Positions 25,632 through 50,416 of a stretch of DNA of 64,000 nt are shown piece after piece. Location: positions 4,681-68,680 of the forward strand of contig CAZUXW010000005.1 of NCBI GenBank assembly GCA_964624625.1, written 5' to 3'. The notes beneath the pieces were generated by a model. It saw only the letters and a program-made list of their open reading frames with translations. It did not search any database and was not told the DNA's origin. The position numbers were made by a program, and so were the translations under genes. Within the stretch, counting starts at the first letter, position 1. The number at the start of each line of letters is the position of its first letter. Origin of the DNA: an uncultured bacterium. GTDB taxonomy: Bacteria > Oederibacteriota > Muellerivitia > Muellerivitales > Muellerivitaceae.

Positions 25632-27785
25632 TTGGCGCTGGTGAGCCCGGTTTCCTGGTTTTCAAACCAAAAAGCCCTTAAGTGGCTCGCCCTTAGCGTC
25701 ATTGCGGCAGGGTTGCTCCTAGCCGGAAGCGGTATCTGCATAAACCATCCAATCGAAAATACCGGTTGGATGGTTTTTTCTTGGTTGCTAACCTTCCTTT
25801 GGTTTTTCCTCTTAATCCGCTTCAAAATTTTATCAGGCCCGAACCGCGTTTTTTTCCTGTTGGGAACCATTGTCGCGCTCAATTTGCTGGCACAAAGCAC
25901 GGGCCGGGAACAATCGCCCCTTGTTTTGGCGGTTTTTTTACTGATGGGGATCGCTTCCTGGGAAGGGGACGCCAAATATGGTTTTTGGGTGGCGATTCTA
26001 TTCAGCCTATTAGAGGCCTTCTATCCCCAGGAAGATTACTCCCTCCAAAGGCATTCCAACCTGGTGCTTTACCTGCGGTGGGCCACTTTCCTGGTCTCGG
26101 CCTTTTTTTTAGCCAGGGTGGTCAAAACGCGGAAAGAAAAAGAACAATTGGACCATCATTTGGAATCCCTCAAAAACGAGGCGGTCCAGCTGGCCAGCGA
26201 CGCCGAACCTTCCTCTTTCAACGTGCCCAAGGACAAGCTTTTAATGGAGGAGGGCCGCCTCTCGGCGCGAATGGGAACCGTGATGGAATTGGAAGAGTCC
26301 CTGACCCGCCAATTGACCCTTTTCCAGAAAACCCTTCCGGTCCATACAGCGGTGTTTTTCCTGCTGACCACCGTGGGCGAAAAGAAGGCGCTGCGCCTCA
26401 GGGCTTTCTCCAGCGAATCCGATTCGGTGGCTTCTGACGTGACGATCCTGCCGGGCGAAACCCTCATCGGCCTGGCCGCCAAGGAAGGACGCAAGGTACT
26501 GTTGAACCAGATGCCGGTGGAAAGCGCCAAAGCCCTTCCTTATTACTTGAAACCCAGTACGGTCGGTTCCTTCCTGGCTTATCCCATTTACCTGGACCAA
26601 GCCCAATCCGACCCTCGGTTGGGGGGCGAGTCGGAACTGGTAGGCGTCCTGGTCTTGGACCATCCGGGGGAGGAATATTTTAGCGAGCCCAAAATCGGTT
26701 TGGTGGAGCGGTTTGGGAAATTGTTGGCGGATACGATCCACGGCGCCAGGGTGATGCATTTCTCAAAGACGAAAACTAGGAATTTACACGCCCTCTACGA
26801 GGTCTCCCACTCATTTTCCACCTTGCTGGAGATGGGTCCGGTTTTGGAAACGGCCTTGAAGACGGCCAAGGAAATATCCCCCTGTGATTCGGCCTATATT
26901 GCCCTGGTGGAAGGGGACGGGAAGAAGTTCCGCATCATCGGCAGGTGGGACAAAGTCGCGGCCAGGGAAAAAGCCGATTTCTTGGAGGATGATTTGGCCG
27001 CCTGGGTGCTGGAAAACAAAAGACCCATCAGGTATACGAGGGGCCAGAAGGATAAAAGCCTCCTGGCTTTTTCGAAAAAGGAGGGCATGCTGGGTTCGAC
27101 CCAATCCTTTCTTTTGACGCCACTGCTGGTAGGGGAGGATGTTTTGGGGGTCATCCGGCTCAACAGCCAAACGCAGGATGCCTACCAGGAATACGACCAA
27201 GATGTCTTGATGACCCTGGGCAACCAAACAGCGATGGCCTTGAAGAACGCTTGGAATGTGCAGGACATCCAGGACATGGCGACCCGCGATGGGTTGACCG
27301 GCGTTTATAACCACAGGTATTTCCAGGAAAAACTTGGGGAGGAATTGGCCAAGGCGGAGCGTTACAACAAGGATCTAAGCCTGGCGCTGCTGGACGTGGA
27401 TCATTTTAAAAAGTTCAACGATAGCTACGGGCACCAAGAAGGCGATAAGGTCCTTAAAATTGTTTCCCAGATCATCCAAAATACCATAAGAAATAAAGTC
27501 GACACCGTGGCCCGATATGGGGGAGAGGAATTCGCCATCGTCCTCCCGGAGGCCGACGGCAATGTCGGGAGGGAACTGGCGGACCGGGTCCGAAAAAACA
27601 TCGAGAGCCATCTTTTCGAGAATAACGGAAAGACCCTCTATCGAGTGACGGTTTCCATCGGTGTTGCTTCCTATCCCTTTGATGCCAGGGAACAAAAGAG
27701 TTTGATTCAATTGGCCGATAAGGCCCTCTACCAATGTAAAGCGGACGGACGAAACTGTGTCCGAAAGTTTACGGCGCAGGATTAA
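25632..27785 (+). CDS. Membrane-anchored sensor diguanylate cyclase (N-terminal multi-TM domain, two GAF-like domains, C-terminal GGDEF)
   Basis: About 5 hydrophobic helices in the first 170 aa. C-terminal RDGLTGVYNHRYF...LDVDHFKKFNDSYGHQEGD...RYGGEEFAIVLPE is a GGDEF active site. Confidence 0.8.
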   Translation: MALVSPVSWFSNQKALKWLALSVIAAGLLLAGSGICINHPIENTGWMVFSWLLTFLWFFLLIRFKILSGPNRVFFLLGTIVALNLLAQSTGREQSPLVLAVFLLMGIASWEGDAKYGFWVAILFSLLEAFYPQEDYSLQRHSNLVLYLRWATFLVSAFFLARVVKTRKEKEQLDHHLESLKNEAVQLASDAEPSSFNVPKDKLLMEEGRLSARMGTVMELEESLTRQLTLFQKTLPVHTAVFFLLTTVGEKKALRLRAFSSESDSVASDVTILPGETLIGLAAKEGRKVLLNQMPVESAKALPYYLKPSTVGSFLAYPIYLDQAQSDPRLGGESELVGVLVLDHPGEEYFSEPKIGLVERFGKLLADTIHGARVMHFSKTKTRNLHALYEVSHSFSTLLEMGPVLETALKTAKEISPCDSAYIALVEGDGKKFRIIGRWDKVAAREKADFLEDDLAAWVLENKRPIRYTRGQKDKSLLAFSKKEGMLGSTQSFLLTPLLVGEDVLGVIRLNSQTQDAYQEYDQDVLMTLGNQTAMALKNAWNVQDIQDMATRDGLTGVYNHRYFQEKLGEELAKAERYNKDLSLALLDVDHFKKFNDSYGHQEGDKVLKIVSQIIQNTIRNKVDTVARYGGEEFAIVLPEADGNVGRELADRVRKNIESHLFENNGKTLYRVTVSIGVASYPFDAREQKSLIQLADKALYQCKADGRNCVRKFTAQD

Positions 27786-27941
27786 CGGTAAAAGTCGGCA
27801 ATTCCCGTGAAAAAAGAGGGGGAGCCCCATATGTGGTAGGGTTGGGTTAGGCCCTACCAAAAAGTGTGGCCCTGATCAAAAAAATAGATGGAACCACCGA
27901 AGTCATTCATTCTTTCTTTCCTAAATTTTCATTCTTCTTAC

Positions 27942-27956
27942 AATGACACTGTCATT
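27942..27956. promoter_or_regulatory. Perfect 15-bp palindrome AATGACAcTGTCATT upstream of the MerR-like gene (candidate operator)
   Basis: Read directly at 27942-27956. Same half-site (TGTCAT/ATGACA) as the palindrome in the flgB promoter. Confidence 0.45.
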
Positions 27957-27999
27957 GAGCTTAGCGGGGTATTGTCAACCTCCTGTTAAAAGGAATGAA

Positions 28000-28260
28000 A
28001 TGATCCTGACGATAAGAGAAATCGCGACAAAGCTTGGTGTCCATGAGCAAACCCTCCGCAACTGGGAACGCCTAGGTTTATTAAAGATTTCACGCTTTGG
28101 CGGAAATCGAACCCGTATTTACAACGAAAAAGACCTCCTGCTTTGCAAAAAAATAGCGAGCTTTTCCGGCCAGGGAATCAACCTGCGCGGAATAAAGGTC
28201 TTGCTTGCTCGTGAAAAAAATGAAAAACCGAAGTTGGTTGGAGCGAATCACCGACATTAA
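28000..28260 (+). CDS. Small MerR-family HTH transcriptional regulator (DNA-binding domain only)
   Basis: MILTIREIATKLGVHEQTLRNWERLGLL...RTRIYNEKDLLL matches the MerR N-terminal HTH. AAGGAATGAA RBS. Located immediately upstream of the flagellar operon. Confidence 0.65.
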   Translation: MILTIREIATKLGVHEQTLRNWERLGLLKISRFGGNRTRIYNEKDLLLCKKIASFSGQGINLRGIKVLLAREKNEKPKLVGANHRH

Positions 28261-28342
28261 AGTTTGAAAACCGTGTCAAGAATTAAACGAAGGAGGTGGC
28301 CGTAAAGACCAGGAAAATGAAGGGTTTTTGAGAGGTTAGTTC

Positions 28343-28374
28343 TTGACAGAGGTAAAAGCTTTGTCATAATGACA
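28343..28374 (+). promoter_or_regulatory. Sigma-70-like promoter for the flgB operon (TTGACA-16-CATAAT) overlapped by the 13-bp palindrome TGTCATaATGACA
   Basis: TTGACA 28343-28348. CATAAT 28365-28370. Palindrome 28362-28374 overlaps the -10 element. Confidence 0.45.
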
Positions 28375-28440
28375 CTAATTTTTCGCCGCTGACGGAATTT
28401 TGAACTTCATTTTTCTCTTCGATTGGGCCGCCTCAGATTC

Positions 28441-28505: not shown

Positions 28506-28928
28506 GTGGTCAACCCAATCAGCTTTATTGATCCCTTGGCGGTTTTGCAAAAAGGCCTCGACGCCCTCGCCACCCAACACGAAGTCATCGCCAACAATTT
28601 ATCCAATTTGGATACCCCGCAATTCAAACGTTCGGTGGTTTCCTTCCAGGACAAACTAAAGGCCGCGATCAACATTAACGAGCCATCGCCTTTATGGCGG
28701 ACCCATCCCATGCATTTTCCGATCGATAAAAAAGTGTCCCTGGATAATTTCAAGCCCGATGTCCGAACCATCACCGAAACCATCGGACGAAATGACGGCA
28801 ATAACGTGGATCTGGAAATGGAATCCGGTTTGCTTGCGGAAAACAACCTTCTTTATAACAGCATGGCGGATGTCACCAGCCGCTACATGGCCAATCTTCG
28901 GCACGCGATCTCGGAAGGGAGGCAATAA
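28506..28928 (+). CDS. flgB: Flagellar basal-body rod protein FlgB
   Basis: N-terminal rod motif LDALATQHEVIANNLSNLDTPQFK. AGGAG RBS. First gene of the cluster. Confidence 0.85.
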   Translation: MVNPISFIDPLAVLQKGLDALATQHEVIANNLSNLDTPQFKRSVVSFQDKLKAAININEPSPLWRTHPMHFPIDKKVSLDNFKPDVRTITETIGRNDGNNVDLEMESGLLAENNLLYNSMADVTSRYMANLRHAISEGRQ

Positions 28929-28931
28929 TCC

Positions 28932-29390
28932 ATGGGCGCACTATCGGGAGTTTTCGCCCCTTTTTCGATAACGGCCTCCGCCTTGACGGCGGAACGCCTC
29001 CGGATGGATGTCATTTCGAATAACATCGCCAACGCCAACACCACGAGAACCATGGAAGGCGGACCCTATATCCGCCAACGAGTTGTTTTCGCGCCGCGTT
29101 TTGACCCCACTCCGGCTTTCGCGCCGGTGGAGGCCTTGATGACCCCGGAGGGGCTGCCGGTCGGGGTGAGAGCGGTGGGTATCACCAAAGATCCTTCCGC
29201 ACCCCGGATGGTTTATGACCCGGGTCATCCGGATGCGAATACCGAAGGCTATGTGGCATATCCCAACGTGAATATCGTGAACGAAATGGTTGATATGATC
29301 TCGGCGACGCGGGCCTATGAGGCGAATATCACGGTTTTTAACGCCACGAAATCCATGGCCCTTCAAGCCTTGAATATCGGCAAAGCTTAA
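28932..29390 (+). CDS. flgC: Flagellar basal-body rod protein FlgC
   Basis: ITASALTAERLRMDVISNNIANANTTRT. C-terminal ISATRAYEANITVFNATKSMALQAL. Confidence 0.9.
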   Translation: MGALSGVFAPFSITASALTAERLRMDVISNNIANANTTRTMEGGPYIRQRVVFAPRFDPTPAFAPVEALMTPEGLPVGVRAVGITKDPSAPRMVYDPGHPDANTEGYVAYPNVNIVNEMVDMISATRAYEANITVFNATKSMALQALNIGKA

Positions 29391-29439
29391 TTTAAATGAA
29401 TTGAATTTTCGATAGAACCAAAATCGATTTAAAGGTACT

Positions 29440-29769
29440 TTGATGCAAATTCAGCCGGTTCAAATGCCCGTCTCGATGACCCAAGGGGCCATTTTGCCGA
29501 TTCAACCGATCGCCTTGGACGCTGCCCAGAACGCGGCGGAAGTTTCGCCGGCGAATTTTAAGGATTTGATGAAAAAGGCTTTAACGGACCTGAATGTGAG
29601 CCAGGTGGGGGCGAACGACGCCATCAAGAGTTTGGCGACAGGCGGCGAGGAAAACCTTCATGACATCATTATCTCGATGGAAAAAGCCAGCATGACGCTG
29701 CAGTACGCTATTCAGATTCGTAACAAATTGTTGGAGGCTTACCAGTCGGTTATTCAAATGCAGATCTAG
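29440..29769 (+). CDS. fliE: Flagellar hook-basal body complex protein FliE
   Basis: C-terminal LQYAIQIRNKLLEAYQSVIQMQI, typical of FliE. Position flgB-flgC-fliE. Confidence 0.8.
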   Translation: MMQIQPVQMPVSMTQGAILPIQPIALDAAQNAAEVSPANFKDLMKKALTDLNVSQVGANDAIKSLATGGEENLHDIIISMEKASMTLQYAIQIRNKLLEAYQSVIQMQI

Positions 29770-29828
29770 GGTTAGCCGCGAGCGGTGAAGACTGAATTGA
29801 GGATTGATCCTATTTTCACGAGGAAAGA

Positions 29829-31481
29829 TTGAAAAACTTTTTCGAACAACTCATACAGCAGTTCAAGGATGTTTGGAGCCGTTTTAACCGGGTCCAGAGG
29901 ATCCTCATTGTGGCTATTCCCTTGTCCTTGTTCTTGGGGCTTTTGCTCTTCATTCTCCTTTCCTCGCGCTCCCGGTTCGAGGTTTTGTATTCCAACTTGG
30001 AGCAAAAGGACGCCGCGGAAGTGACGGCCGAACTCAAAAAGGAAAATATTCCCTACCGGTTGGCGACCAAGGACAAGATGGTCATGGTTTTGGTCCCCTC
30101 GGAAAAGGTTTATGACACGCGCTTAACCTTGGCGGGCCAAGGGTTGCCGAAGGGAACGGGCGTGGGGTATGAGATTTTTGACCAGCCCAAATGGGGCTCG
30201 ACCGACTTTACCCAGAAAGTAAATTATAAGAGGGCACAGGAAGGGGAGCTGCAAAGAACGATCGGCAGCCTCCAGCAAATCCAAGGGGCCCGCGTCAGTA
30301 TCGTCATTCCGGAGCCGGAGCTGTTCACGGAGAAGGAAAAGCCCACCACCGCTTCCGTGGTGTTGGAGTTGAAGTCGGATACCCAGCTGAAGCGGGAACA
30401 GGTCCGTGGAATCGTGCATATGGTTTCCTCCAGCGTGGAGGGTCTGAAGCCCGAGAATGTCAATGTCATCGACAGCAAAGGCAACATTCTTTCGGCTTTT
30501 ATCCAGGAAGAGCAGCAGGACAACAATCAGGACCCCTTGAACGGCGGAAGCATGCTGACCCAGCAGGCCAAGTTGACGCTGCACCAGATGGAAGTTCAAC
30601 AAAGCTTCGAGAAGGATTTGGAGCGAAAAGTCAATGTCATGTTGACCAAGGTGCTGGGCGGCAACAGCCGTTTCGCCGTTTCCGTATCCGCGGAGCTTAA
30701 TTTTGACAAGACGGAAAACGACTCCGAGACTTTCGAGCCGGTGGTGGATGGGCAGGGCATCGCCCGCTCCAGCCAAACGAAGAAGGAGCAGTATGTCGGC
30801 GACGGGGGATTTCCCACGAGCGTGGTGGGCGGCGTTCCCGGAACAGACTCCAATATCCCCGGCTATCAAGCGGTTGCGGGAGCGAATTCCCAATATTCTA
30901 AAGAAGAGAACACCACGAATTATGAGATCAACCGAACGGTCAAGCATAACGTTGTGGCGCCAGGTTCTCCGAAACGAATTTCAGTAGGGGTGTTTGTGGA
31001 TAACCTCCAGCCCCAACAGGTGGAGGCGATTAAGTCGGCGGTTGTGGCGGCGGCTGGTATGGATATCAACCGGGGTGACCAAGTGGCGGTCGAAAATATG
31101 CCGTTTGACAACACCCAGGCTTTGGCGAGTTTGAAGGAGACTCAGATGGAAACCCAACAGAATTTTTATATGACGTTAGGAAAAATCGGCCTGTTGGTAT
31201 TGATGGCCTTCGGGGTTTTGCTCTTCCTCAGATCGCTCTTGAAACCCAAGAAGGAAAAGCAGTACGTGGATACGGTGGACGATTTGATGGAGGAGCCGGC
31301 CATGATGCCTCAAGTCGAGGACATCATCACGACGGATATCACCGCGGAAGACTTGGCTCGTGCTGAAGCGGCTCGGGACGCTAAAAAGCGTCAAGCGGTT
31401 CGTGAGGAAGTTTTTGAGATGGCAAATAAGAATCCTGAAAATGTCGCCCAAATCATTAAGAAATGGCTCTCTGAGGAGTAG
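29829..31481 (+). CDS. fliF: Flagellar M-ring protein FliF
   Basis: 550 aa. N-terminal TM after RILIVAIPLSLFLGLLLFIL, central ring-building motifs, second TM GLLVLMAFGVLLFL near the C-terminus. Confidence 0.9.
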   Translation: MKNFFEQLIQQFKDVWSRFNRVQRILIVAIPLSLFLGLLLFILLSSRSRFEVLYSNLEQKDAAEVTAELKKENIPYRLATKDKMVMVLVPSEKVYDTRLTLAGQGLPKGTGVGYEIFDQPKWGSTDFTQKVNYKRAQEGELQRTIGSLQQIQGARVSIVIPEPELFTEKEKPTTASVVLELKSDTQLKREQVRGIVHMVSSSVEGLKPENVNVIDSKGNILSAFIQEEQQDNNQDPLNGGSMLTQQAKLTLHQMEVQQSFEKDLERKVNVMLTKVLGGNSRFAVSVSAELNFDKTENDSETFEPVVDGQGIARSSQTKKEQYVGDGGFPTSVVGGVPGTDSNIPGYQAVAGANSQYSKEENTTNYEINRTVKHNVVAPGSPKRISVGVFVDNLQPQQVEAIKSAVVAAAGMDINRGDQVAVENMPFDNTQALASLKETQMETQQNFYMTLGKIGLLVLMAFGVLLFLRSLLKPKKEKQYVDTVDDLMEEPAMMPQVEDIITTDITAEDLARAEAARDAKKRQAVREEVFEMANKNPENVAQIIKKWLSEE

Positions 31482-31486
31482 TCTTC

Positions 31487-32506
31487 ATGGCGGATACCAA
31501 GAAAAAAGCTGCGTTAACGGGTGAGCAAAAAGCTGCCGCTCTTCTCATTTCGCTGGGCCCGGAACTCGCGGCCAAGATTTATCAGCATTTGAAAGAAGAG
31601 ACGGTGGAGCAGGTCACCCTGCAAATCGCCAATTTGAGAAAAATCACCCCGGATGAAAAAGACTCGGTGATGCAGGAAGTTCTCAATATTGCCGCGGCCC
31701 AGGAATATATCTCGCAGGGCGGCGTGGAATACGCCCACGAAATCCTGGAAAAGGCCTTGGGCGCCAACAAGGCCATGGAAATCATCAACCGCCTTCAGGG
31801 ATCCCTGCAGATGACGCCTTTTGACTACATCAAAAGGACGGATCCCCAGCAGCTTTTGAACTTTATTCAAGCGGAGCACCCCCAAACGATCGCCTTGATC
31901 CTGGCCCATTTAACGCCGGAACACGCCGCCATCATATTGGGAGCCCTTCCGGGCGACGTCCAAGTGGACGTGGCGACCCGCATCGCGATCCTCGACCGGG
32001 CCGCCCCGGACGTTGTCATGGAAATCGAGAGAGTTTTGGAGAGGCGCATATCCTCCATCTTTACCCAGGAATTCACCGCCGCCGGCGGAGTGAGATCCTT
32101 GGCCGAGGTGTTGAACCGGGCCGACCGTTCCACGGAAAAGGCCATTATGGAAAAGTTGGAAGAGTCCAATCCCGAATTGGCCGAGGAAGTCAAGCGGCTC
32201 ATGTTCGTCTTTGACGACTTGATCAACCTGGATAACAGGACGATCCAGCAAATCCTCCGTGAGGTGGACGCCAAGGACTTGGCGCTGGCCTTGAAGGGCT
32301 GCAAGGACGAGGTCAAGGAGCATATCCTGAAGAACATGTCGAGCCGCGCGAAAGCCATGATCCAGGAGGACATGGAAGTCATGGGGCCCGTCCGGTTGAA
32401 GCACGCTGAGGAAGCGCAGCAGAAAATCATCAATGTGGTTCGTCAGCTGGAGGAAATGGGCGAGATTGTCGTGGCGCGCGGCGGTGAAGAAGAGGTTATG
32501 ATCTAG
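31487..32506 (+). CDS. fliG: Flagellar motor switch protein FliG
   Basis: TGEQKAAALLISLGPELAAKIYQHL. ARM-repeat architecture. C-terminal torque helix region. Confidence 0.9.
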   Translation: MADTKKKAALTGEQKAAALLISLGPELAAKIYQHLKEETVEQVTLQIANLRKITPDEKDSVMQEVLNIAAAQEYISQGGVEYAHEILEKALGANKAMEIINRLQGSLQMTPFDYIKRTDPQQLLNFIQAEHPQTIALILAHLTPEHAAIILGALPGDVQVDVATRIAILDRAAPDVVMEIERVLERRISSIFTQEFTAAGGVRSLAEVLNRADRSTEKAIMEKLEESNPELAEEVKRLMFVFDDLINLDNRTIQQILREVDAKDLALALKGCKDEVKEHILKNMSSRAKAMIQEDMEVMGPVRLKHAEEAQQKIINVVRQLEEMGEIVVARGGEEEVMI

Positions 32507-32522
32507 GCCTTTTTAAGGTGGA

Positions 32523-33431
32523 GTGAACATGAGCCGCGAAGTTCTATCGAGCCGGGATTACCAGCAGTTGGAGCAGGGGTATTTGGTCGACAACGGCCCC
32601 TGGCAGGAAGAGATTAAAAAAAGGCTGAGGCAGCAGGCGGTGGTTAAAATCACCGAGACGCGGCCGACCCTGGGGCCGGAGGAGTTCCAGCCCCTGTTCC
32701 TGGCGGAAACGCCGGAAGCGGTGGAGGAAGTCAAGCCTCCTGAGCCGACCCCGGAAGAAATTCTGGAAAAGGCCAAGTTGGACGCCGAGGAAACGGCGAA
32801 GACCATCGAACAGGCGGCCCGCAAAAGCGCCTTTGACGTGGTGGAACAGGCCCGCTGGGAAGCCAACGACATCCTCGCGAAGGCGAAGGAAGAGGCCGAG
32901 AAAGAAGTGCAGCAGTTGAAGGACGCCGCGGCTGAGGAAGGCCGCAAAGAAGGGCTGGCGAAGGGCCTGGAAGAAGGCTTCGTGAAGGGCCGGACGGAAG
33001 GCAACCAGGAATACTCGGCTTCCGTCAAAAAATGGAATGAGCTTTTCGAAAAGACTTTGGCGGAACGCAAGGCCGCCATGGGAGACCTGCAGCCGATGCT
33101 GGTGGAGCTGGTGGGGGATTGCCTTTACCGCTGTTTGAAGGATGAGAGCCAGAAAAGCGGCCAAGTGGCGGTAGAGTTCGTCAAGGAAGCCTTGTCGAAA
33201 GCGCAGGACCGGATTCATTTGAAGCTGCATTTAAATCCCGGGGATGTGGAGGAAGTGAACGCCCAGAAGGAACGGCTTCAGCTGTCGGTGGGAGCCGGGC
33301 AGATGGAATTGGTTTCGGACGCCAGGATTGAAAAGGGCGGATGTGTGCTGGAGACGGAGGCGGGATCCGTGGATGTTCGTTTGTCCACCGTGGTTGCCCA
33401 AGTCAAAGATTCGTTGAGCGCGGGGCAGTAA
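32523..33431 (+). CDS. fliH: Flagellar assembly protein FliH
   Basis: E/K/A-rich coiled coil followed by a FliH C-terminal domain. Between fliG and fliI. Confidence 0.75.
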   Translation: MNMSREVLSSRDYQQLEQGYLVDNGPWQEEIKKRLRQQAVVKITETRPTLGPEEFQPLFLAETPEAVEEVKPPEPTPEEILEKAKLDAEETAKTIEQAARKSAFDVVEQARWEANDILAKAKEEAEKEVQQLKDAAAEEGRKEGLAKGLEEGFVKGRTEGNQEYSASVKKWNELFEKTLAERKAAMGDLQPMLVELVGDCLYRCLKDESQKSGQVAVEFVKEALSKAQDRIHLKLHLNPGDVEEVNAQKERLQLSVGAGQMELVSDARIEKGGCVLETEAGSVDVRLSTVVAQVKDSLSAGQ

Positions 33432-33443
33432 CGGCTCGAGCGG

Positions 33444-34802
33444 TTGACCGGGGAGATAAACGTGAATCCAGTTTTGGGCGACATCATTCCACCCCTGGAT
33501 CATTATAAAAAAAAGATCAGTGAAGCCGAGATCGCGCGGGTGAACGGAAAAGTCGAGCAGGTGGTGGGGCTGGTCATTGAATCCTCGGGGCCCACGGCCT
33601 CGGTGGGGGAAGCCTGCTGGATCACGGCGGCGGACGGCGCTGGACAGCCGATTTTGGCCGAAGTGGTGGGGTTTAGGCAGCACCATGTATTACTCATGCC
33701 GTTGGCCGAAATGAGGGGCCTTGGCCCCGGCAGTGAAGTGGTTAAAACAGGGGAACCTTTTAAGATTCCAGTGGGGAAAAACCTGCTGGGCAGGGTCATT
33801 GACGCGATGGGCAAGCCCTTGGACGGCAAAGGGCCCTTGGGTCCGATGGAAGAAAAATATCCCATCCACCGGGAACCGCCGCCGGCGATGGAACGGCGCC
33901 GAATCGAGATGCCGGTGTCGACGGGTGTTCGGGCTATCGACTCGGTTTTGACTTTGGGCGAAGGGCAACGTTTGGGAATCTTCGCCGGGTCGGGCGTTGG
34001 GAAAAGTACGCTTCTGGGAATGATCGCCAGAAATACCGTGGCGGACGTCAATGTGATCGCTTTGGTGGGTGAGCGCGGCAGGGAGGTCAGGGACTTTTTA
34101 GAAAGGGATCTGGGAGAGAAAGGGCTGGAGCGAAGCGTGGTCGTGGTGGCCACTTCGGACCAACCTTCCCTCGTCCGGATCCAAGCGGCGCTGGTGGCGA
34201 CCGCGGTGGCGGAATATTTCCGCGACCAAGGGAAGCGGGTCATGCTGATGATGGATTCCATCACCCGGTTCGCGATGGCGCAAAGGGAAGTGGGTCTGGC
34301 GATTGGGGAGCCGCCGACGACCAAGGGTTACACCCCCTCGGTTTTCGCGTTATTGCCCAAACTGCTGGAAAGGGCCGGGACCACCGCCCACCAGGGGAGT
34401 ATTACAGGACTCTATACCATCCTGGTGGAAGCGGACGACATGAACGAACCGGTGGCGGATGCTTGCCGGGCAATTTTAGACGGACACGTGGTTTTGTCGA
34501 GGGATCTGGCGGCGCAGAATCATTACCCCGCCATTGATGTGCTCAACAGCGTTTCCCGCGTGATGAGGGACATCGTCAGCGCCGAGCAGGCGGAAGGAGC
34601 CGCGAAGATCCGCTCCGTTTTGGCGACGTTTAAAAGCGTCGAGGATTTAATTTCGATCGGGGCCTATGTCAAGGGCAGCAACCCGAAGGTGGACCAGGCT
34701 TTGACAAGGCTGGAGGCGGTTCAAGTTTTCTTGCGGCAGGGACGCGAGGAGAACGCGCTTTGGAAGGACACCCTTCAACGAATGAAGGGCTTTCTTAATT
34801 AA
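33444..34802 (+). CDS. fliI: Flagellum-specific ATP synthase FliI
   Basis: Walker A GIFAGSGVGKSTLLGMI. Walker B MLMMDSITRFA. The start may be the GTG at 33462. Confidence 0.9.
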   Translation: MTGEINVNPVLGDIIPPLDHYKKKISEAEIARVNGKVEQVVGLVIESSGPTASVGEACWITAADGAGQPILAEVVGFRQHHVLLMPLAEMRGLGPGSEVVKTGEPFKIPVGKNLLGRVIDAMGKPLDGKGPLGPMEEKYPIHREPPPAMERRRIEMPVSTGVRAIDSVLTLGEGQRLGIFAGSGVGKSTLLGMIARNTVADVNVIALVGERGREVRDFLERDLGEKGLERSVVVVATSDQPSLVRIQAALVATAVAEYFRDQGKRVMLMMDSITRFAMAQREVGLAIGEPPTTKGYTPSVFALLPKLLERAGTTAHQGSITGLYTILVEADDMNEPVADACRAILDGHVVLSRDLAAQNHYPAIDVLNSVSRVMRDIVSAEQAEGAAKIRSVLATFKSVEDLISIGAYVKGSNPKVDQALTRLEAVQVFLRQGREENALWKDTLQRMKGFLN

Positions 34803-34810
34803 GAGGGGAC

Positions 34811-35308
34811 ATGGCAAAAAAGTTTGAATTCCGGCTCGAACAGGTTTTGGGCTTGAGGAAACAAGTGGAAGAGGTGAGGGTCCGGGAATTGTCCCAGGCC
34901 AAGGGGAAACTGCTGGAAATTGAAAAGAATCTGAAGGAGCATGCCGAGTCGGAATCCCGGTTTTTAGGGACTTACGGCGAGTTTGAAAAGACGGGGCAGT
35001 TTAACTCCGACCAAGTGATGGCTTATTGCGAGTATCAAGATTGGCTCCTGAGGCAGGAAAAGGAGTTCCGCCGCCAGGAAAGGGAATGGGCCGAAGAGGT
35101 TGAGCGCCGCCGGCAAAAGGCCGTGAAGGCGTCGCGGGAGAAAAAGCTCCTGGAAAATTTGAGGGAAAAGAAAAAATCGGTTTACGCCAAGGAAGTCTCG
35201 GCTGAGGAACAACGTTTCTTGGATGAAATTTCGTCGATCGCTTTTGTTAGGCGCGACCGGGCGCAAAGCGCCGTGAACGCCGCTTTAGAACTAAATTCGG
35301 GGAGGTGA
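34811..35308 (+). CDS. fliJ: Flagellar export chaperone FliJ
   Basis: 165-aa all-coiled-coil protein (MAKKFEFRLEQVLGLRKQVEE...) directly after fliI. Confidence 0.7.
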   Translation: MAKKFEFRLEQVLGLRKQVEEVRVRELSQAKGKLLEIEKNLKEHAESESRFLGTYGEFEKTGQFNSDQVMAYCEYQDWLLRQEKEFRRQEREWAEEVERRRQKAVKASREKKLLENLREKKKSVYAKEVSAEEQRFLDEISSIAFVRRDRAQSAVNAALELNSGR

Positions 35309-35312
35309 TTTT

Positions 35313-36128
35313 GTGGATACAGCAACGGTTCTAGGATTATTCTTGGGGTTTCTGGGGGTTCTTGGGGGTTCCTTGATCGAAGGAGTTCACCCTGGCGTTT
35401 TGTTCAAGTTTTCCGCTTTCATGATCGTCGCCGTGGGTTCGGCCGGAGCGACCATCATGAGCTTTCCGATCGACAACGTTAAAGAGTTCATCCCGGTTTT
35501 GAAAAAAGCCTTCAAAAAACAGGAACTGGATCCAGCCGCGATTGTGACCCAGCTGGTCGGCTTCGCCACAAAGGCCCGCCGGGAAGGTTTGTTGGGTTTG
35601 GAAGAGGAAGCGGAGTCGATTCAAGATCCCTTCCTGAAAAAGGGCTTGCAGCTGGTCGTTGACGGTACGGACATCGAAATGATCCGTAATATCATGGAAA
35701 CCGATATCGCCTTTTTGGAATCCCGCCATAAAGTGGGTGAGAGCATTTTTGGAACCTTCGGGGGGTTCACGCCGACACTGGGAATCATCGGAACCGTCTT
35801 GGGCCTGGTTCACGCCTTGGGTTCCATGGGAGAAGGCGCCAGCGACGCCAAGGACCTGGTCGCCGCCATCGCCACGGCCTTCATCGCGACTTTTTATGGA
35901 ATCTCCTTCGCCAATATCATCTTTCTTCCGCTTTCGTTTAAGTTAAAGCAAAACAGCCAGCAGGAAGTCCTTTTAAGGGAAGTAATGCTGGAAGGAATCT
36001 TGGCGATTTCGGCCGGGGATAATCCCCGTATCGTTGAGGAAAAATTGAAAGCCTTCTTGCCGCCCAAAATGAAGTTGGATATGGAAGCCCAAAAGGGACA
36101 GGGCGAGGATAAGGAAAAAGAAGAATAG
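35313..36128 (+). CDS. motA: Flagellar motor stator protein MotA
   Basis: MotA/TolQ/ExbB family: MDTATVLGLFLGFLGVLGGSLIEG, four TM helices, GTVLGLVHALG plug region. Confidence 0.85.
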   Translation: MDTATVLGLFLGFLGVLGGSLIEGVHPGVLFKFSAFMIVAVGSAGATIMSFPIDNVKEFIPVLKKAFKKQELDPAAIVTQLVGFATKARREGLLGLEEEAESIQDPFLKKGLQLVVDGTDIEMIRNIMETDIAFLESRHKVGESIFGTFGGFTPTLGIIGTVLGLVHALGSMGEGASDAKDLVAAIATAFIATFYGISFANIIFLPLSFKLKQNSQQEVLLREVMLEGILAISAGDNPRIVEEKLKAFLPPKMKLDMEAQKGQGEDKEKEE

Positions 36129-36168
36129 TTAAAAATCCCCCAGGGGAATTTGAATTGGAGAACGAGTA

Positions 36169-36930
36169 ATGCCAAAACGTAAAAAAGGAGGCCATGAGGC
36201 GGGGCTTGAAATGGAGTCCGGCGGTATGATGCGCTGGCTGTTGACTTACGCCGACTTGATCACCCTGCTCCTGGCCCTTTTTATTATTCTTTACGCTCTT
36301 TCGGCCTCGAAAAGCACGGTGGTATTGCAGGAAATGATGGCTCAGTTCCGGGCGGTTTTTGGACCGATCCCGGGCAATACCACCATTCTTCCTTCGCAAA
36401 GCTCCAACCCGGGCGAGCACTACAAAATCATCCCTGGCGAGCCGCAAGAGGGTGGTCCGGGAGGGCCCGCGAAGCCAAAGGCCGTTGATGTTGGAAGGGT
36501 TAAAAATATTTTCCAGAAGGAATTGGGCGCCAATAAGGTTAGCATCCGGAAAGAGGCGCGGGGGTTGGTCATCAGCCTCATGACCGACAAGGTTTTGTTC
36601 GATTTGGGTGAATATAAGATTAAGCCTGAGATGAAGGAAGTGCTGAACGATGTGGCCAAACTATTGAAGCAAAACCCTGACAAGCAAATTGTCGTGGAAG
36701 GGCACACGGACGACTTGGCGATTCAAACAAGCAAATTGCCGGGTAATTGGGAGCTTTCAGCTTTGCGGGCGACCTCCGTGGTAAAGTATTTAGTGACGGA
36801 AAAGGGCTTGGATCCGAGCCGGTTTTCCGCGTCGGGCTATGGGGAGTATCAACCGTTGGTACCCAACATCAGCGAGGCAAACCGACGGATTAACCGCCGG
36901 GTTGACATAGTCATCATGAAGTTAGATTAA
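36169..36930 (+). CDS. motB: Flagellar motor stator protein MotB (OmpA-like peptidoglycan-binding C-terminus)
   Basis: N-terminal TM WLLTYADLITLLLALFIIL with conserved Asp. C-terminal VVEGHTDD...NRRINRRVDIVI OmpA-like domain. Confidence 0.85.
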   Translation: MPKRKKGGHEAGLEMESGGMMRWLLTYADLITLLLALFIILYALSASKSTVVLQEMMAQFRAVFGPIPGNTTILPSQSSNPGEHYKIIPGEPQEGGPGGPAKPKAVDVGRVKNIFQKELGANKVSIRKEARGLVISLMTDKVLFDLGEYKIKPEMKEVLNDVAKLLKQNPDKQIVVEGHTDDLAIQTSKLPGNWELSALRATSVVKYLVTEKGLDPSRFSASGYGEYQPLVPNISEANRRINRRVDIVIMKLD

Positions 36931-36946
36931 TAAAGGAGGGGTGAAA

Positions 36947-37423
36947 ATGGCAGATCAAGGCGATAAGGGCACAAAGGGGTTGCTGAGTCTTTTGCTGGCG
37001 TTAAGCGTACTGAGTGTTTTGGGGATCATTACCCTGGCCCTGGGAATGTTCATGGGGTGGGGAGCCAAAACCGAGACGGCGAAAGAAGCCAAAGTTATTG
37101 AACAAAAGCCCGAACCGGGAAAAGTTTATGACTTGGGAACATTCATCGTGAACTTAGCCGATGAAGAGGCTTCCCGGTATATCCGAACTGATATTCAGTT
37201 GGAATACAGCAAGGTGAATTTGGAACTGGATAAGGAAATCAAGGAAAGGGATCCCCAGTTCAAAGATCTGGTCAACACCCTTTTGAACGACCGCAAGGCC
37301 GCTGAGTTGTCGACCTCGGAAGGCAAGGAACGCTTTCGCAGGGAACTTCAGCTCAAAATCAACAATTCTTTGAAGTATGGAGCCGTGACCAACGTGTTTT
37401 TAACCCTATTCGCGATCCAGTAG
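36947..37423 (+). CDS. fliL: Flagellar basal body-associated protein FliL
   Basis: Single N-terminal TM. VYDLGTFIVNLADEEASRYIRTDIQLEY FliL motif. AAGGAGG RBS before the ATG at 36947. Confidence 0.8.
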   Translation: MADQGDKGTKGLLSLLLALSVLSVLGIITLALGMFMGWGAKTETAKEAKVIEQKPEPGKVYDLGTFIVNLADEEASRYIRTDIQLEYSKVNLELDKEIKERDPQFKDLVNTLLNDRKAAELSTSEGKERFRRELQLKINNSLKYGAVTNVFLTLFAIQ

Positions 37424-37463
37424 TCTGAGGGATAAATTTTAGTGAGGGAAGGGAGGGAGACAA

Positions 37464-38495
37464 ATGGATGACTTATTATCTGACGGCGAGGTAAGCGCTC
37501 TACTTTCCGAACTAGACGTGGATATGACCGGTTCCGGCGGTTCTGACTCCTCGGGATCATCGGTGTCGGCTCCCGAAGCCGGCATTACGGTTGATGAGAT
37601 GGGCCGCAAAATCAAAACCTATGACTTCAACCGGCCGAATCGTTTCTCCAAAGACCATATGAGGACCTTGGAGATGCTCCATGAGATATTTTCCCGCGGT
37701 TTTACCGCCTCGGTGGCGGCCTATTTAAGAACCGTGGCTGAGATCAAGGTTGTGTCCGTGACGCAGCTGCCGTTCCGTGAATACACCATGTCGCTTCCCC
37801 GTCCGGATTGTATTTTCGTCTTGAAAATGGAACCCCTCGACGGTGCCTTCCTCCTGGAGATCAACCCGGAATTGGTCTTGACCCTGATTGACCGAATCCT
37901 GGGAGGGCCAGGGAAAGCGCCGACCGCCACCCGGGAGCTCACCCTCATCGAGCAATCCGTCATCGAAAAAATCGTCAACCGCGGATTGGAAGCCCTTCAG
38001 GAAGCTTGGTTGAAAGTAGGCCATTTCCAGCCAAAATTAACCGGCTATGAAACCACCGCTCAGTTTGTCCAGGTCGTCGCGCCCAGCGAAATTACCGCGG
38101 TCATCGAGTTCGAGGTGAAAGTGAATGAGGTGACCGGCAAAATGTCGATGTGTATTCCTTATGTGGTGCTGGAACCGATCATCGGCGACTTGTCCGCTCA
38201 AAAATGGTTCACGGTCGGGAAGAAAGAGTCCACCGCGGAGACGGTGGAGAGCCTCACGAAGGTCATGAGGGAAACCAGCGTTCCCATCGTCGTCCGGGCC
38301 GGGGCGACCCAAATCACGGTCCAGGAAATGCTCCGCCTCAAAGCCGGGGATGTGATTCGTTTGAACACCAGTCCCCATCAAGAGATTGATGTCTTGATCG
38401 AGAATTTAGTCAAGTTGAAGGGCCGGCCGGGAGTTTCGTCCAAAAAGAAAGCCCTTCAAGTAACCAAAGTTTGTTCGTTAGATAACAAATCATAG
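37464..38495 (+). CDS. fliM: Flagellar motor switch protein FliM
   Basis: YDFNRPNRFSKDHMRTLEMLHE (FliM N-region). CheC-like middle. C-terminal SpoA domain. Confidence 0.9.
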   Translation: MDDLLSDGEVSALLSELDVDMTGSGGSDSSGSSVSAPEAGITVDEMGRKIKTYDFNRPNRFSKDHMRTLEMLHEIFSRGFTASVAAYLRTVAEIKVVSVTQLPFREYTMSLPRPDCIFVLKMEPLDGAFLLEINPELVLTLIDRILGGPGKAPTATRELTLIEQSVIEKIVNRGLEALQEAWLKVGHFQPKLTGYETTAQFVQVVAPSEITAVIEFEVKVNEVTGKMSMCIPYVVLEPIIGDLSAQKWFTVGKKESTAETVESLTKVMRETSVPIVVRAGATQITVQEMLRLKAGDVIRLNTSPHQEIDVLIENLVKLKGRPGVSSKKKALQVTKVCSLDNKS

Positions 38496-38513
38496 TTTCG
38501 CCAAAGGGTCTTC

Positions 38514-39464
38514 GTGGATATCAATAAACTTCAAAACTTTGGCGAGGCGGCGGCTGTTGGTTTAGCCCAAACCTTAACCGCTTTGATGGGCCGGGATGTG
38601 CTGGTTTCATTATCCCGGGTTTCCAACGAGGATACGAAATCGGTGGCTTCGGGCCTGGATTCCTCGTATCTTGTTGCGGCTTTGAAGGGGTCCGGCGGGG
38701 TGGATGGGACGGCGCTTTTGTTGACGAAGGAAAAAAACTCGTCGGTTTTGGCCGATTTGTTGATAGGCCAGGATGGGACGAGCGCTCCCGAAAAGATGAC
38801 GGAACTTCATTTATCCGCTTTTGGCGAGGTGCTTCACCAAATGGCGGAGGTTTTTACGACGGAGGGAAAGAAAGTCGGTGGTTCGAAGGTTCTTTGGGAG
38901 GCGGGCGAGCCTTCCACCATGGAATCTTCCTCGTTGGACCGCCAGTTATCCCAGTTGGGCGTGACATTAACGGTTTTCAATTTCGCCTTTAATGTCCAAG
39001 ATTTATTGACGGGTGAGTTTTTATTTTGTCTTCCCGAATCGGTTGCTTCTCGTTTTTCGACCGGGGCGGGAAAACCAGCTGCCCCTGTGGCTTCTGGAAA
39101 TGTTCAATCCGGTGTTTCGACTGTAAACACCCAATCGCGAGCGGGAGGTGCTTCTGTGCAACAATTAGAAAATGAATTCTCGGGTTCGGCTCGACCGACT
39201 GGGGGAAACATCGGGCTTTTACTGGATGTTCCCTTGAAACTGACCGTCGAACTTGGCCGGACGACGAAATTGGTGAAGGAAATTTTGGCCTTGGCGCCTG
39301 GTTCCGTGGTGGAGCTGGACAAGTTGGCGGGTGAGGCTGTTGACATATTGGTCAACGAGAAGCTGATCGCCAAGGGAGAAGTGGTCGTGATCGACGAGAA
39401 TTTCGGGGTCCGCATCACTGAGATCATCAATCCCGAAGAACGGTTGCACGCGGTTCAGGCTTAA
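38514..39464 (+). CDS. fliN: Flagellar motor switch protein FliY/FliN (CheC-like N-domain plus C-terminal SpoA/FliN domain)
   Basis: N-terminal EAAAVGLAQTLTALMGRDV CheC-like. C-terminal LLDVPLKLTVELGRTTKLVKEILALAPGSVVELDKLAGEAVDILVNEKLIAKGEVVVID is a SpoA domain. Confidence 0.8.
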   Translation: MDINKLQNFGEAAAVGLAQTLTALMGRDVLVSLSRVSNEDTKSVASGLDSSYLVAALKGSGGVDGTALLLTKEKNSSVLADLLIGQDGTSAPEKMTELHLSAFGEVLHQMAEVFTTEGKKVGGSKVLWEAGEPSTMESSSLDRQLSQLGVTLTVFNFAFNVQDLLTGEFLFCLPESVASRFSTGAGKPAAPVASGNVQSGVSTVNTQSRAGGASVQQLENEFSGSARPTGGNIGLLLDVPLKLTVELGRTTKLVKEILALAPGSVVELDKLAGEAVDILVNEKLIAKGEVVVIDENFGVRITEIINPEERLHAVQA

Positions 39465-39492
39465 TTAAGGCATTGAGGACTCGTAAAGTTCC

Positions 39493-40191
39493 ATGCCCAT
39501 GACCTGTTCCAACCACGAGAACCCTTGGATACTAAATACCCTCATCGGTTTAGTTCTAGGGGTTTGTCTATTTCTGCCGGTTAATCCTCCTGGCGCTTGG
39601 GCGATTGATTCCAACAGCGCCCTGTTTGAAAAAAACCAAAGCGCAGCCCCTGGGGAAAAGGAAAAAAACAGCCAGCCCTTGGCCCTTCCCGAGGAAACCC
39701 CCAATCCCTCCCCCGGAATATTCTCGACCCTGGCAAGGATTTTCCTCGCCCTTTTCCTCATTGTGGGCCTGATCATTTTAACGGTTTGGGGCGTGAAGTT
39801 TGTTTGGGAAAAACAAGGGTGGAATAACCTGAGCGAGACGGGGAAGCCCATCAAGGTTTTGACCTCGACCTACCTGGCTCCCCGAAAAGCGATTCATTTA
39901 ATCGAGGTCGGCAAACGGCTTTTAGTGGTGGGAGTGGGTAAGGATGAGATGAGTTGTTTCGATGTCATCGCGGACCCGGATGAAATTGAGTCCTTGCGCC
40001 AGGCCGCCCAGCAGGGATTCCCGAAAATATTCTCGAAAATCATGAATAAGCATGAGGCGGTGCAGGATGAGGCCGAGGCCAAAAGAATCATCGCGGAAAG
40101 CAACGAGCTGGTGGGTGGTTACGTGGAAAAATTAAAAGGGATTACCAAGAACAAGAAAAATCCGGTCCGCGGGAAGGGTGAACATTCATGA
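39493..40191 (+). CDS. fliO: Flagellar biosynthesis protein FliO (FliZ-type)
   Basis: Position between fliN and fliP. Single TM IFLALFLIVGLIILTVWGV. LAPRKAIHLIEVGKRLLVVGV motif typical of FliO. Confidence 0.6.
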   Translation: MPMTCSNHENPWILNTLIGLVLGVCLFLPVNPPGAWAIDSNSALFEKNQSAAPGEKEKNSQPLALPEETPNPSPGIFSTLARIFLALFLIVGLIILTVWGVKFVWEKQGWNNLSETGKPIKVLTSTYLAPRKAIHLIEVGKRLLVVGVGKDEMSCFDVIADPDEIESLRQAAQQGFPKIFSKIMNKHEAVQDEAEAKRIIAESNELVGGYVEKLKGITKNKKNPVRGKGEHS

Positions 40192-40943: not shown

Positions 40944-40966
40944 CTTTTTGAAATGAGGATTTAGAA

Positions 40967-41236
40967 ATGACGGTAGAATTTATCGCTGACTTGGCGAATC
41001 GGGCCCTTTGGATCACCCTTCTTATTTCCGCCCCGATCCTGGGATTGGGACTGGCGGTGGGTGTGGCGGTTTCCATTTTCCAGGCCGTCACGCAGATACA
41101 GGAAATGACCTTAACCTTTATCCCGAAAATCATCGCCATTTTTTTCGCCATTCTTGTGTTCGGGAAATGGATGATGCTGGTTTTATTGAACTTCACTTCC
41201 AACCTTTGGATTAACCTTCCGAATTACTCGAAGTGA
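40967..41236 (+). CDS. fliQ: Flagellar biosynthesis protein FliQ
   Basis: 89 aa, two TM helices, FQAVTQIQEMTLTFIPK motif. Confidence 0.9.
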   Translation: MTVEFIADLANRALWITLLISAPILGLGLAVGVAVSIFQAVTQIQEMTLTFIPKIIAIFFAILVFGKWMMLVLLNFTSNLWINLPNYSK

Positions 41237-41243
41237 GGGCGCT

Positions 41244-42029: not shown

Positions 42030-42100
42030 GGCCGTCGCCAAAAACCGGTTGGAATGGCCTTTGGCGGTGGACCCTAAATAATTGATTACGAGGATGAACG

Positions 42101-43171: not shown

Positions 43172-43304
43172 TCCCGGTGTTTTTCCCGCGATTGGAGCTG
43201 ATTGTTTTAAGTTAAGGGCCGCAGGGAAACGTGAAAATAAAGGAATTTAAGCTTTTTGTGGGGCCTCATTTAGTGTTGGGGTAGTAACGAATCCTCCTGC
43301 TACA

Positions 43305-46633: not shown

Positions 46634-46642
46634 GGGGGATTT

Positions 46643-47548: not shown

Positions 47549-47615
47549 GCCTGGCAGGGATGGAGAATGAGGGCGGCGGCTTCTTGAGCCGGGATTAAAA
47601 ATTCGGGGGAACCAG

Positions 47616-48026: not shown

Positions 48027-48031
48027 AAAGT

Positions 48032-48877: not shown

Positions 48878-48954
48878 TGGGTGCGGATGGAATGGTGGAT
48901 TGGGCTCGGCCCTTCGATAAGCCTCGGAAATCGATTACGTAAAGGCGGGAAAGT

Positions 48955-50406: not shown

Positions 50407-50416
50407 GCGGTTTGGA

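Follow-up and report, generated by a model that had tools for sequence, protein, structure and literature searches.

A conserved MerR/HspR-like gene and promoter cassette upstream of the flagellar super-operon in an uncultured bacterial phylum

Gene order at the flagellar locus and its conservation

The window analyzed here is a 64-kb stretch of contig CAZUXW010000005.1 from an uncultured bacterium of candidate division FCPU426. In it, a gene for a GAF-GGDEF diguanylate cyclase is followed by a gene for a small MerR-like protein, by a promoter that we call P_flgB, and then by a flagellar super-operon (Table 1). A preliminary description of this DNA had placed the regulator gene directly upstream of the flagellar genes; this position was confirmed, and the operon, ~34 kb long, was found to include fliA and flgM. 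Its first three genes after the regulator are flgB, flgC and fliE according to Pfam. Because the sigma-28 gene, flgM and the remaining flagellar genes run from flgB, P_flgB would be the top-level promoter of the system. Our results support a model, to which we give a probability of about 0.5, in which the small protein is a partner-dependent repressor of its own gene and probably of P_flgB too, as part of a regulatory cassette conserved across candidate division FCPU426.

Homologues of the regulator form a tight family (109 clusters, 60–99% identity, 78–95 residues), nearly all of them starting MILTI, and at 50% clustering just four representatives were found at E < 1e-30 among 1.8 billion proteins. 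A genome scan, restricted to one genome per species, recovered 27 loci, 24 of which belong to FCPU426 or to bins labelled Firestonebacteria, 'proteobacterium' or uncultured, and three to Goldiibacteriota. The MerR-like gene is followed by flgB in all 24 of the non-Goldiibacteriota loci, with the flgB start about 240 nt, and overall 210–300 nt, past the regulator stop. The same order is present in further loci (L028–31) and was unchanged at the most divergent homologue looked up (61% identity); adjacency holds down to 58–60% identity of the regulator protein. For the reverse search, metagenomes were queried with FlgB, and FCPU426-like loci with at least 520 nt of upstream sequence were kept (n = 25). 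The regulator was present in 24 of these 25, and four distant flgB loci (28–31% identity) from the metagenome search lack both the regulator gene and the promoter motif. Such near-invariant adjacency makes a regulatory link plausible. The cyclase gene is also a frequent neighbor, lying directly upstream of the regulator in 18 of the 21 loci with enough flank; the exceptions (L015, L016 and L018) belong to one clade, and the order cyclase, regulator, flgB was also seen in L028 and L030. The conservation of this neighbor suggests an input of cyclic di-GMP (c-di-GMP) to flagellar control.

Table 1. Features of the regulator–flgB region and its surroundings (window coordinates; a point marks features without strand)
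Feature	Coordinates	Strand	Basis or remark
Membrane GAF-GAF-GGDEF (GGEEF) diguanylate cyclase gene	25632..27785	+	Pfam GGDEF 1.4e-48, GAF_2 8e-21
P_merR (predicted): A-tract 27878-84, weak -35-like TTTCCT 27917-22, 16-nt spacer, -10 TACAAT 27939-44	27878..27944	+	Conservation
Palindrome 1, AATGACAcTGTCATT	27942..27956	.	Left arm starts at AAT of the -10; right arm T(G/A)TCA at the predicted start
HAIR-like 7-N7-7 element GCTTAGC-GGGGTAT-TGTCAAC	27959..27979	.	Best candidate autoregulatory site
Stand-alone MerR/HspR-like winged-helix protein, 86 residues	28000..28260	+	Pfam MerR_1, AlphaFold2, Foldseek
TGTCAAG just past the regulator stop	28274..28280	+	Matches right arm of paralog operator; alignment
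GAAAATGAAGGGTTTTT box, ~-64 to -48 of the predicted start	28313..28329	+	AAGG(G/A)TTT in all loci including the divergent clade
P_flgB core promoter	28342..28377	+	Promoter scan; conservation
Palindrome 2, TGTCATaATGACA, P_flgB -15 to -3, candidate repressor site over the -10	28362..28374	.	Conservation
5-bp hairpin TTTCG-N7-CGGAA at 5' end of the flgB leader	28381..28397	+	Weak support; 88% of cells paired
Flagellar super-operon, ~34 kb	28506..62550	+	Co-directional open reading frames with small gaps; Pfam assignments

The MerR-like protein and its relatives

The regulator had been described as an 87-residue MerR-type helix-turn-helix (HTH) protein without an effector domain; the HTH type and the lack of an effector were borne out, and the length is 86 residues. 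It belongs to the MerR superfamily but to no curated subfamily. With PF13411 and PF00376 tested, MerR_1 matched at E = 4.7e-14 (52.7 bits against a cutoff of 21.6), whereas in NCBIfam the top-ranked family, HspR, reached 51.9 bits against a cutoff of 105, and BldC 17.2 against 77. Pfam and NCBIfam matches were to MerR/HTH families alone, with no homology to the FlhDC, FleQ/FlrA, CtrA or SwrA families. The AlphaFold2 model (mean predicted local distance difference test score, pLDDT, of 84) has helices at residues 5–12, 16–24, 43–57 and 62–75, a beta wing at ~31–41 and a disordered tail at 77–86 (pLDDT below 50), and contains neither an alpha-5 coiled coil nor a sensor/effector domain. Foldseek matched the model to MerR-family DNA complexes, including those of GlnR, TnrA, RacA, HiNmlR and MtaN. 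The GlnR–DNA complex 4r4e_B is closest in size (template-modelling scores 0.78/0.79, root-mean-square deviation 1.0), the TnrA–DNA complex 4r22_B scores 0.76/0.79, and deviations for TnrA/GlnR range from 1.0 to 1.5; the RacA DNA-binding domain is also among the size-matched structures. A profile search of PDB sequences returned MtaN, the CarA N-domain and GlnR at ~1e-6 to 1e-7 (GlnR, 1.5e-6).

Residues of the recognition helix, VHEQTLR(N/H)WE, and of the wing, RTR-Y, are invariant, as is Cys49. This cysteine, in LCKKI, is kept in the flagellar family and in the ComFB-linked family described below alike, and most main-clade members end in HRH (residues 84–86); either may be a contact for redox sensing, a metal or a partner protein. 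An alternative reading frame of 105 residues, starting from an ATG at 27943 inside palindrome 1, was rejected because homologues start MILTI, a Shine-Dalgarno (SD) sequence (AAGGA, 27990–94) lies upstream of 28000 and the stretch before it is not conserved as protein. The CCTCC (27979–83) right after an invariant TCAAC, 7–10 nt before the SD, is an anti-SD mimic in its likeness to the 16S rRNA 3' end. The minimum-energy fold has it paired with the SD, but this fold is no better than those of shuffles (z = −0.85).

Among known systems, the protein is most like HspR or TnrA/GlnR but can be assigned to neither, nor to BldC or the classical activators. HspR, its best NCBIfam match, is an autoregulated repressor whose sites overlap or flank sigma-70 promoters, and the HspR operator, HAIR, reads CTTGAGT-N7-ACTCAAG (PMC6102357). 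HAIR geometry is shared by the operator of the paralogs. However, the protein scores less than half of the HspR equivalog cutoff (NF047375) and has nothing past helix 4 but its tail. Its neighbors are the GGDEF gene and flgB, in contrast to the dnaK/cbpA chaperone linkage of HspR, and whereas HAIR has two arms, the window leader keeps one conserved arm, with no HAIR-type site above shuffle level at P_flgB. TnrA/GlnR of Bacillus share with it a minimal winged-HTH fold and size, the lack of a coiled coil and a short, disordered C-terminal tail. In TnrA/GlnR this tail is where a partner protein, glutamine synthetase, delivers its signal (PMC5859096). The TGTCA and TGACA elements found upstream of the regulator and of flgB also fit the half-sites TGTNA and TNACA of their box, TGTNA-N7-TNACA. 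The differences are that the HTH of the window protein begins at residue 3, without an N-terminal extension, that palindrome 2 reads TGTCA-N3-TGACA, with a half-site gap of 3 instead of 7, that the genomic context is unrelated to nitrogen metabolism and that sequence similarity is limited to the domain (E ~1e-6).

BldC, a stand-alone winged-HTH protein of 68 residues, binds non-palindromic direct-repeat arrays of variable length head to tail (PMC5859096). The window protein also lacks dimerization and effector domains, and the T(G/A)TCA elements of its leader are direct repeats, 22–23 nt apart. Yet its BldC score (NF033787) is far below the cutoff, BldC is not in the top 50 Foldseek matches, the window protein has the four-helix MerR N-domain, and no BldC-type AATTXXXX(C) repeat pattern was identified. 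The activators MerR, CueR, SoxR and BmrR have a homologous N-terminal winged HTH, but the window protein lacks both their alpha-5 coiled coil and their sensor domain. Our literature searches turned up neither a MerR-type regulator located at flgB nor any work on regulation in FCPU426; Vibrio LafI, considered as a MerR-type flagellar regulator, is LuxR-type.

Paralogs of the regulator, represented by the three Goldiibacteriota matches (~52% identity) and by relatives from other phyla (one bin is labelled Spirochaetia), do not lie beside flgB. Their gene is co-operonic with a gene for a ComFB-domain protein and with genes for very large proteins (L025:5838–5870, L027, L032 and L034–L041; for example L036 ~2370–2400). 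ComFB is reportedly a recently described family of cyclic di-NMP receptors. The paper on the ComFB family makes no mention of MerR, and tblastn found no ComFB gene in the window or in the FCPU426 loci. The paralogs share the recognition helix, VH(E/Q)QTLRNWE, have a wing two residues shorter and carry ~22 extra N-terminal residues. Their promoter has the perfect form TTGACA-18 nt-TATAAT in 11 of 12 loci and encloses a 21-bp palindrome with 8–9 of 10 pairs, CTTGACAAT-AC(T/C)-nTT(G/A)TCA(A/G)G (in summary form CTTGACA-N7-TRTCAAG; an example is CTTGACAATACTATTRTCAAG). This operator has the 7-N7-7 geometry of HAIR and its outer bases, CTTGA/TCAAG. Its right arm, ATT(G/A)TCAAG, matches ATT(G/A)TCAAC in the FCPU426 leader, G/A alternation included, and the loss of the dyad in the FCPU426 leader coincides with the absence of the N-terminal extension. 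In TnrA/GlnR the N-terminal extension serves dimerization on DNA (PMC5859096). By analogy, the loss of the dyad may be linked to the missing dimerization extension.

The flgB promoter, a predicted regulator promoter and their palindromes

A near-consensus sigma-70 promoter had been proposed in front of flgB, and P_flgB proved to match 11 of 12 consensus positions, with a TG, and to be conserved across the phylum (25 of 25 genome loci; 45 distinct contexts). No other sigma-70-like match was returned by the promoter scan in 27500–28800. The −35 region is CTTGACAG (28342–49, with TTGACA at 28343–48) and the spacer contains AAAGCTTT; a TG at −15/−14 (28362–63) stands before the −10 hexamer CATAAT (28365–70), and the discriminator GACACT leads to a predicted start near A28377. 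In main-clade loci the spacer from TTGACA to CATAAT is 16 nt long (17 to ATAATG), as it is in the window, and the divergent clade has one nucleotide more. The region upstream of flgB is mostly unalignable across loci, with three nearly invariant blocks: AAGG(G/A)TTT ~20 nt before the −35, (C/G)TTGACAG, and AAAGCTTTGTCATAATGACAnnAATTTTTC. The first belongs to the GAAAATGAAGGGTTTTT box, which may be UP-element-like or the site of another factor. Neither a sigma-54 pattern (TGGCAC-N5-TTGC) nor a sigma-28 pattern (TAAA-N15-GCCGATAA) was seen by eye at P_flgB or at the regulator's own upstream site.

Palindrome 2, TGTCATaATGACA, is present as described; it takes in the TG of the extended −10, the whole −10 hexamer and positions −6 to −3. 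CATAAT and the G after it alone yield its inner three pairs, and TG pairs with CA at −4/−3. Contacts with RNA polymerase leave T −13, G −6, A −5 and C −4 unexplained, and the non-consensus C −12 is also kept. The palindrome is perfect in 23 of the 45 distinct contexts, has 5/6 pairs in 13 and 4/6 in three; the other six, from the divergent clade, have either a 1-nt insertion (GTCAATAATGACA) or a broken variant (GTTAATAATGACA). Variation clusters at two positions that mirror each other, 3 (T to C or A) and 11 (A to G), and within 453 kb of locus DNA each locus has a single copy of the 13-mer. CTTGACA(G) is also found at two further good promoters of the window (17355 and 18444), which have no TGTC before the −10 and no GACA after it. 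The flanks of the −35 thus appear generic to the genome, whereas the bases around the −10 are specific to P_flgB. On this comparative evidence we take palindrome 2 to be a real selected sequence, first of all promoter and plausibly also a protein site. Because it covers −15 to −3 of a near-consensus promoter, a protein bound there would repress. Its overlap with the −10, claimed in the preliminary description, is correct. As a clean operator palindrome 2 is not supported, being inseparable from the extended −10, the −10 and the discriminator.

Palindrome 2 could instead be the operator of a regulator encoded elsewhere, such as a FleQ-like or other c-di-GMP-responsive protein acting on GTCA-(A/T-rich)-TGAC, in which case the MerR-like protein would have another role. 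The FleQ box, GTCaNTAAAtTGAC (PMC6120874, PMC8125075), has the same arms and an A/T-rich center, the inverted GTCA...TGAC is still there in L020, L022 and L024 despite their 1-nt insertion, and the cyclase gene is a conserved neighbor. However, the arms are spaced by 3–4 nt and not by the 6 nt of the FleQ box, and L030 has GTTA in place of GTCA. The window showed no regulator of this type, and the open reading frames (ORFs) checked, which lie beyond its first 17 kb, include no FlhDC-, FleQ- or CtrA-type gene. The resemblance is also short and could be due to chance, and we consider this explanation improbable.

A second promoter, P_merR, is predicted upstream of the regulator gene from an ungapped alignment anchored on its −10 hexamer. 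TACAAT is found in 20 of 24 loci, the others having AACAAT, TAAAAT or TAAAGT; TTT(T/C)CA-like bases lie 16 nt before it and an A-run at a fixed −55 to −60. Downstream there follows T(G/A)TCA, whose purine stands exactly 7 nt past the hexamer, at the expected start site near 27951. A polypyrimidine run, TTCTTTCTTTCC (27905–27922), and the A-tract keep a fixed spacing to TACAAT across loci; a weak −35, an UP element and an activator site are candidates for their role.

Palindrome 1, AATGACAcTGTCATT, is likewise a perfect 15-bp palindrome in the window, as first reported, but its standing as a dyad element was not upheld by comparison. Across 40 distinct orthologous contexts, 7/7 pairs are present in two and 6/7 in five, with a median of 3–4/7. 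The TGTCA of its right arm (27950–54) is ~100% conserved, whereas G, A, C and A of the left arm are conserved at 70, 50, 70 and 22%. Since a dyad operator would constrain both arms alike, palindrome 1 is best explained as a lineage-specific coincidence around two conserved elements. The best candidate for an autoregulatory site is instead the HAIR-like element further down the leader. Its right arm, TT(G/A)TCAAC (TTGTCAAC, 27972–79), is invariant, with TCAAC in 25 of 25 loci, and its left arm is degenerate, conserved as G(C/T)TTAG. A fuller palindrome is present in L015 (8/10 pairs), L016 (7/10) and L013 (8/11). The arms of HAIR-like sites in H. pylori are likewise poorly conserved (PMC6102357).

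Do the two palindromes belong together? Perfect 6-N1-6 palindromes number 38 in the window, against ~16–17 in shuffles, and most are GC-rich and lie inside ORFs, so that one alone is not rare. Just three of the 38 are intergenic, and two of these are palindromes 1 and 2, which have the same hexamers and lie 420 nt apart. TGTCA or TGACA occurs seven times in 445 nt, against 0.41 expected from the density in the window (17-fold); these words are above background in every locus, although the anchors used in that count account for part of this. To the concern that such palindromes might occur at many unrelated sites, the answer is that each exact 13-mer is found once in the window, and the window's intergenic DNA has no further copy of either palindrome or of the paralog operator.

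In the preliminary description, a single dimeric regulator was suggested to bind both palindromes, autoregulating and controlling the whole flagellar operon; we read this as a master activator of the MerR type. Both palindromes do exist, with the same hexamers, the position of the gene is conserved, and no FlhDC-, FleQ- or CtrA-type gene was seen among the ORFs checked, which lie beyond the first 17 kb. The half-sites are, however, arranged in opposite order, ATGACA-n-TGTCAT in palindrome 1 and TGTCAT-n-ATGACA in palindrome 2, and the word shared on one strand is the 9-mer AATGACACT, made up of the end of a −10 hexamer plus GACACT; the two are thus not equivalent dimer sites. The distance between half-site centers is 8 bp in palindrome 2, 6 bp in palindrome 1 and 12 bp in the TnrA/GlnR box and in HAIR, and the protein has no coiled-coil dimerization helix. 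The rarity of a perfect palindrome 1 and the asymmetric conservation of its arms also speak against a common dimer. Activation of the MerR type is excluded because the spacer is 16–17 nt and the promoter is already near consensus, with nothing for such activation to correct. Classical MerR activators work on a 19–20-nt spacer with the dyad inside it, whereas the palindrome at P_flgB is centered on the −10, where occupancy of −15 to −3 would repress. A master activator of this kind is thus very unlikely, and binding of one dimer to both sites is not supported.

An RNA element in place of DNA sites was also considered and rejected. RNAalifold finds no consensus structure in either leader, and single-sequence folds are no better than those of shuffles (z = −0.85 for the regulator leader and +0.99 for the flgB leader). 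There are no Rfam matches in 27700–28600 even at E ≤ 1, and therefore no c-di-GMP riboswitch like the one that precedes flgB in C. difficile. The small hairpin at the 5' end of the flgB leader shows double changes in two pairs/loci (TTTCC/GGAAA and TTAAG/CTTAA), a weak covariation, and is not called by RNAalifold. A second hairpin, GGTAGGG-N10-CCCTACC (27838–27862), lies past the GGDEF stop and is followed by AAAAA and no T-run; on neither strand does it have the form of a canonical terminator.

The super-operon comprises flgB, flgC, fliE, fliF, fliG, fliH, fliI, fliJ, motA, motB, fliL, fliM, fliN, fliO, fliP, fliR, flhB, flhA, flhF, flhG, fliA (48032–48877), fapA, flgG, flgA, flgH, flgI, flgJ, flgM, flgN and others. 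It thereby covers rod, MS-ring, C-ring, export apparatus and stator as well as FlhF/FlhG, FapA, FlgM and FlgN. Six of its ORFs have no confident Pfam or NCBIfam family (47616–48026, 50369–50752, 50754–51419, 51435–52121, 52462–54612 and 54602–56179); one of them sits between flhG and fliA, and two, with products of 716 and 525 residues, have just a weak UPF0164 match and an fn3 match. These ORFs may encode lineage-specific flagellar components. The fla/che operon of Bacillus subtilis has a sigma-A promoter and sigD within the operon, and its regulators are SwrA/DegU and CodY. The two systems are alike in their long operon starting from flgB, their housekeeping-type promoter and their internal sigma-28 gene. 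They differ in that SwrA/DegU and CodY are unrelated to the MerR-like protein and that, in the window, flgM, flgN and the L- and P-ring genes share the co-directional array.

A candidate repressor of the flagellar operon and its alternatives

Taken together, these observations are consistent with a model in which the small protein recognizes half-sites of the form T(G/A)TCA(A), in the way that the ComFB-linked paralogs seem to read their HAIR-like operator. It would repress its own gene from the TT(G/A)TCAAC and T(G/A)TCA elements at about +1 to +30, and P_flgB would probably be repressed through TGTCA/TGACA at −15 to −3, perhaps together with the −35 and with TGTCAAG past the regulator stop, an element kept only in the window's subclade (~10 of 25 loci). 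Because the protein has no effector or dimerization domain, control would be exerted through a partner protein or through its own abundance. DnaK, the partner of HspR, and glutamine synthetase, that of TnrA/GlnR, would be precedents for the former. A link to c-di-GMP is attractive, given the GGDEF neighbor and the ComFB partner of the paralogs.

A competing explanation is that both palindromes are by-products of the −10, the start site and the discriminator. P_flgB would then be essentially constitutive or otherwise controlled, and the protein would regulate only itself, act at a distance, or be kept in place for co-expression by read-through. Several observations weigh against repression at P_flgB or speak for this explanation. 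Besides the poor conservation of palindrome 1 and the abundance of 6-N1-6 palindromes, TG, CATAAT and the following G account for most of palindrome 2, with only four more bases to explain, and a change in either arm is never matched by a compensating one opposite. In the divergent clade, where the regulator gene is retained, the left arm has moved by 1 nt or is broken. A HAIR-type 7-N(6–8)-7 operator at P_flgB was rejected, the best matches (9–11/14) equaling those of shuffles (mean 9.7, maximum 12). The single 13/14 match, in L020, is not conserved, and scan matches at −80 to −84 from the −35 in L001, L003, L006, L007, L010, L012 and L014 are individually no better than shuffles. That CTTGACAG, which spans the −35 and its flanks, serves as a half-site of the regulator is made less likely by the two unrelated window promoters that are identical there, and the three TGTCA-type sites at P_flgB are spaced and oriented differently from those of the paralog operator.

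The regulator's own upstream region adds two further points of this kind. P_merR matches the consensus at only 8 of 12 positions and is not called by the promoter scan, its prediction resting on conservation, and outside L013, L015 and L016 the leader element is a lone half-site with 3–5/10 pairs (3/10 in the window). No terminator was called between the regulator gene and flgB by the scan, so that read-through from P_merR is possible. Finally, in one metagenome contig (L068, 236–995) the GGDEF gene end is separated from an intact P_flgB motif and flgB by ~760 nt that contain no intact MerR-like ORF. Remnants of the regulator are a TACAAT, ATTGTTCGAAACCTCC and a faint similarity to ...KSIAKQGFSCGLNLDR. 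Here the regulator ORF looks decayed and the promoter element has stayed intact, although this is a single low-coverage contig and an anecdote only; it may reflect a natural loss of the regulator or an artefact of assembly or sequencing.

An explanation by promoter function alone nevertheless does not account for the near-absolute adjacency of regulator and flgB, down to 58–60% identity and with separate conserved promoters. Nor does it account for C −12 and GACA, which are conserved though unneeded by sigma-70 and are absent from the other local promoters. Moreover, a transcription factor gene immediately upstream of a single operon usually regulates that operon. We therefore regard promoter function alone as a serious but rather doubtful account, and prefer the autoregulated, partner-dependent repressor.

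A stronger version of the repressor model can be proposed only tentatively. In it, an effector-less MerR/HspR-like winged-HTH protein would be the dedicated gatekeeper of the phylum's flagellar super-operon, binding T(G/A)TCA elements over the −35, the −10 and the start as a monomer or loose oligomer and receiving its signal through a partner, which might be linked to c-di-GMP. We consider this a possibility worth keeping in view, though one we would not favor outright.

What stands out here is the conserved cassette and its ComFB-linked sister family; the earlier two-palindrome model was mostly not borne out. Should the protein not bind P_flgB, what is left would be a small transcription factor of the usual kind, autoregulated and encoded next to a strong promoter. 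Top-level flagellar control is known for few lineages, through FlhDC, FleQ/FlrA, CtrA and SwrA/DegU. To our knowledge, FCPU426, Firestonebacteria and their relatives have no cultured members, and we know of nothing on their flagellar control. The sister family pairs the same DNA-reading head with ComFB, most members of which have no established output, and its 21-bp operator can be read from comparison. The syntenic 86-residue protein and its deeply conserved promoter offer a concrete hypothesis for flagellar control in an uncultured phylum. If the gatekeeper version holds, top-level flagellar regulators would gain a new class, and MerR-like proteins a new pairing, with ComFB.

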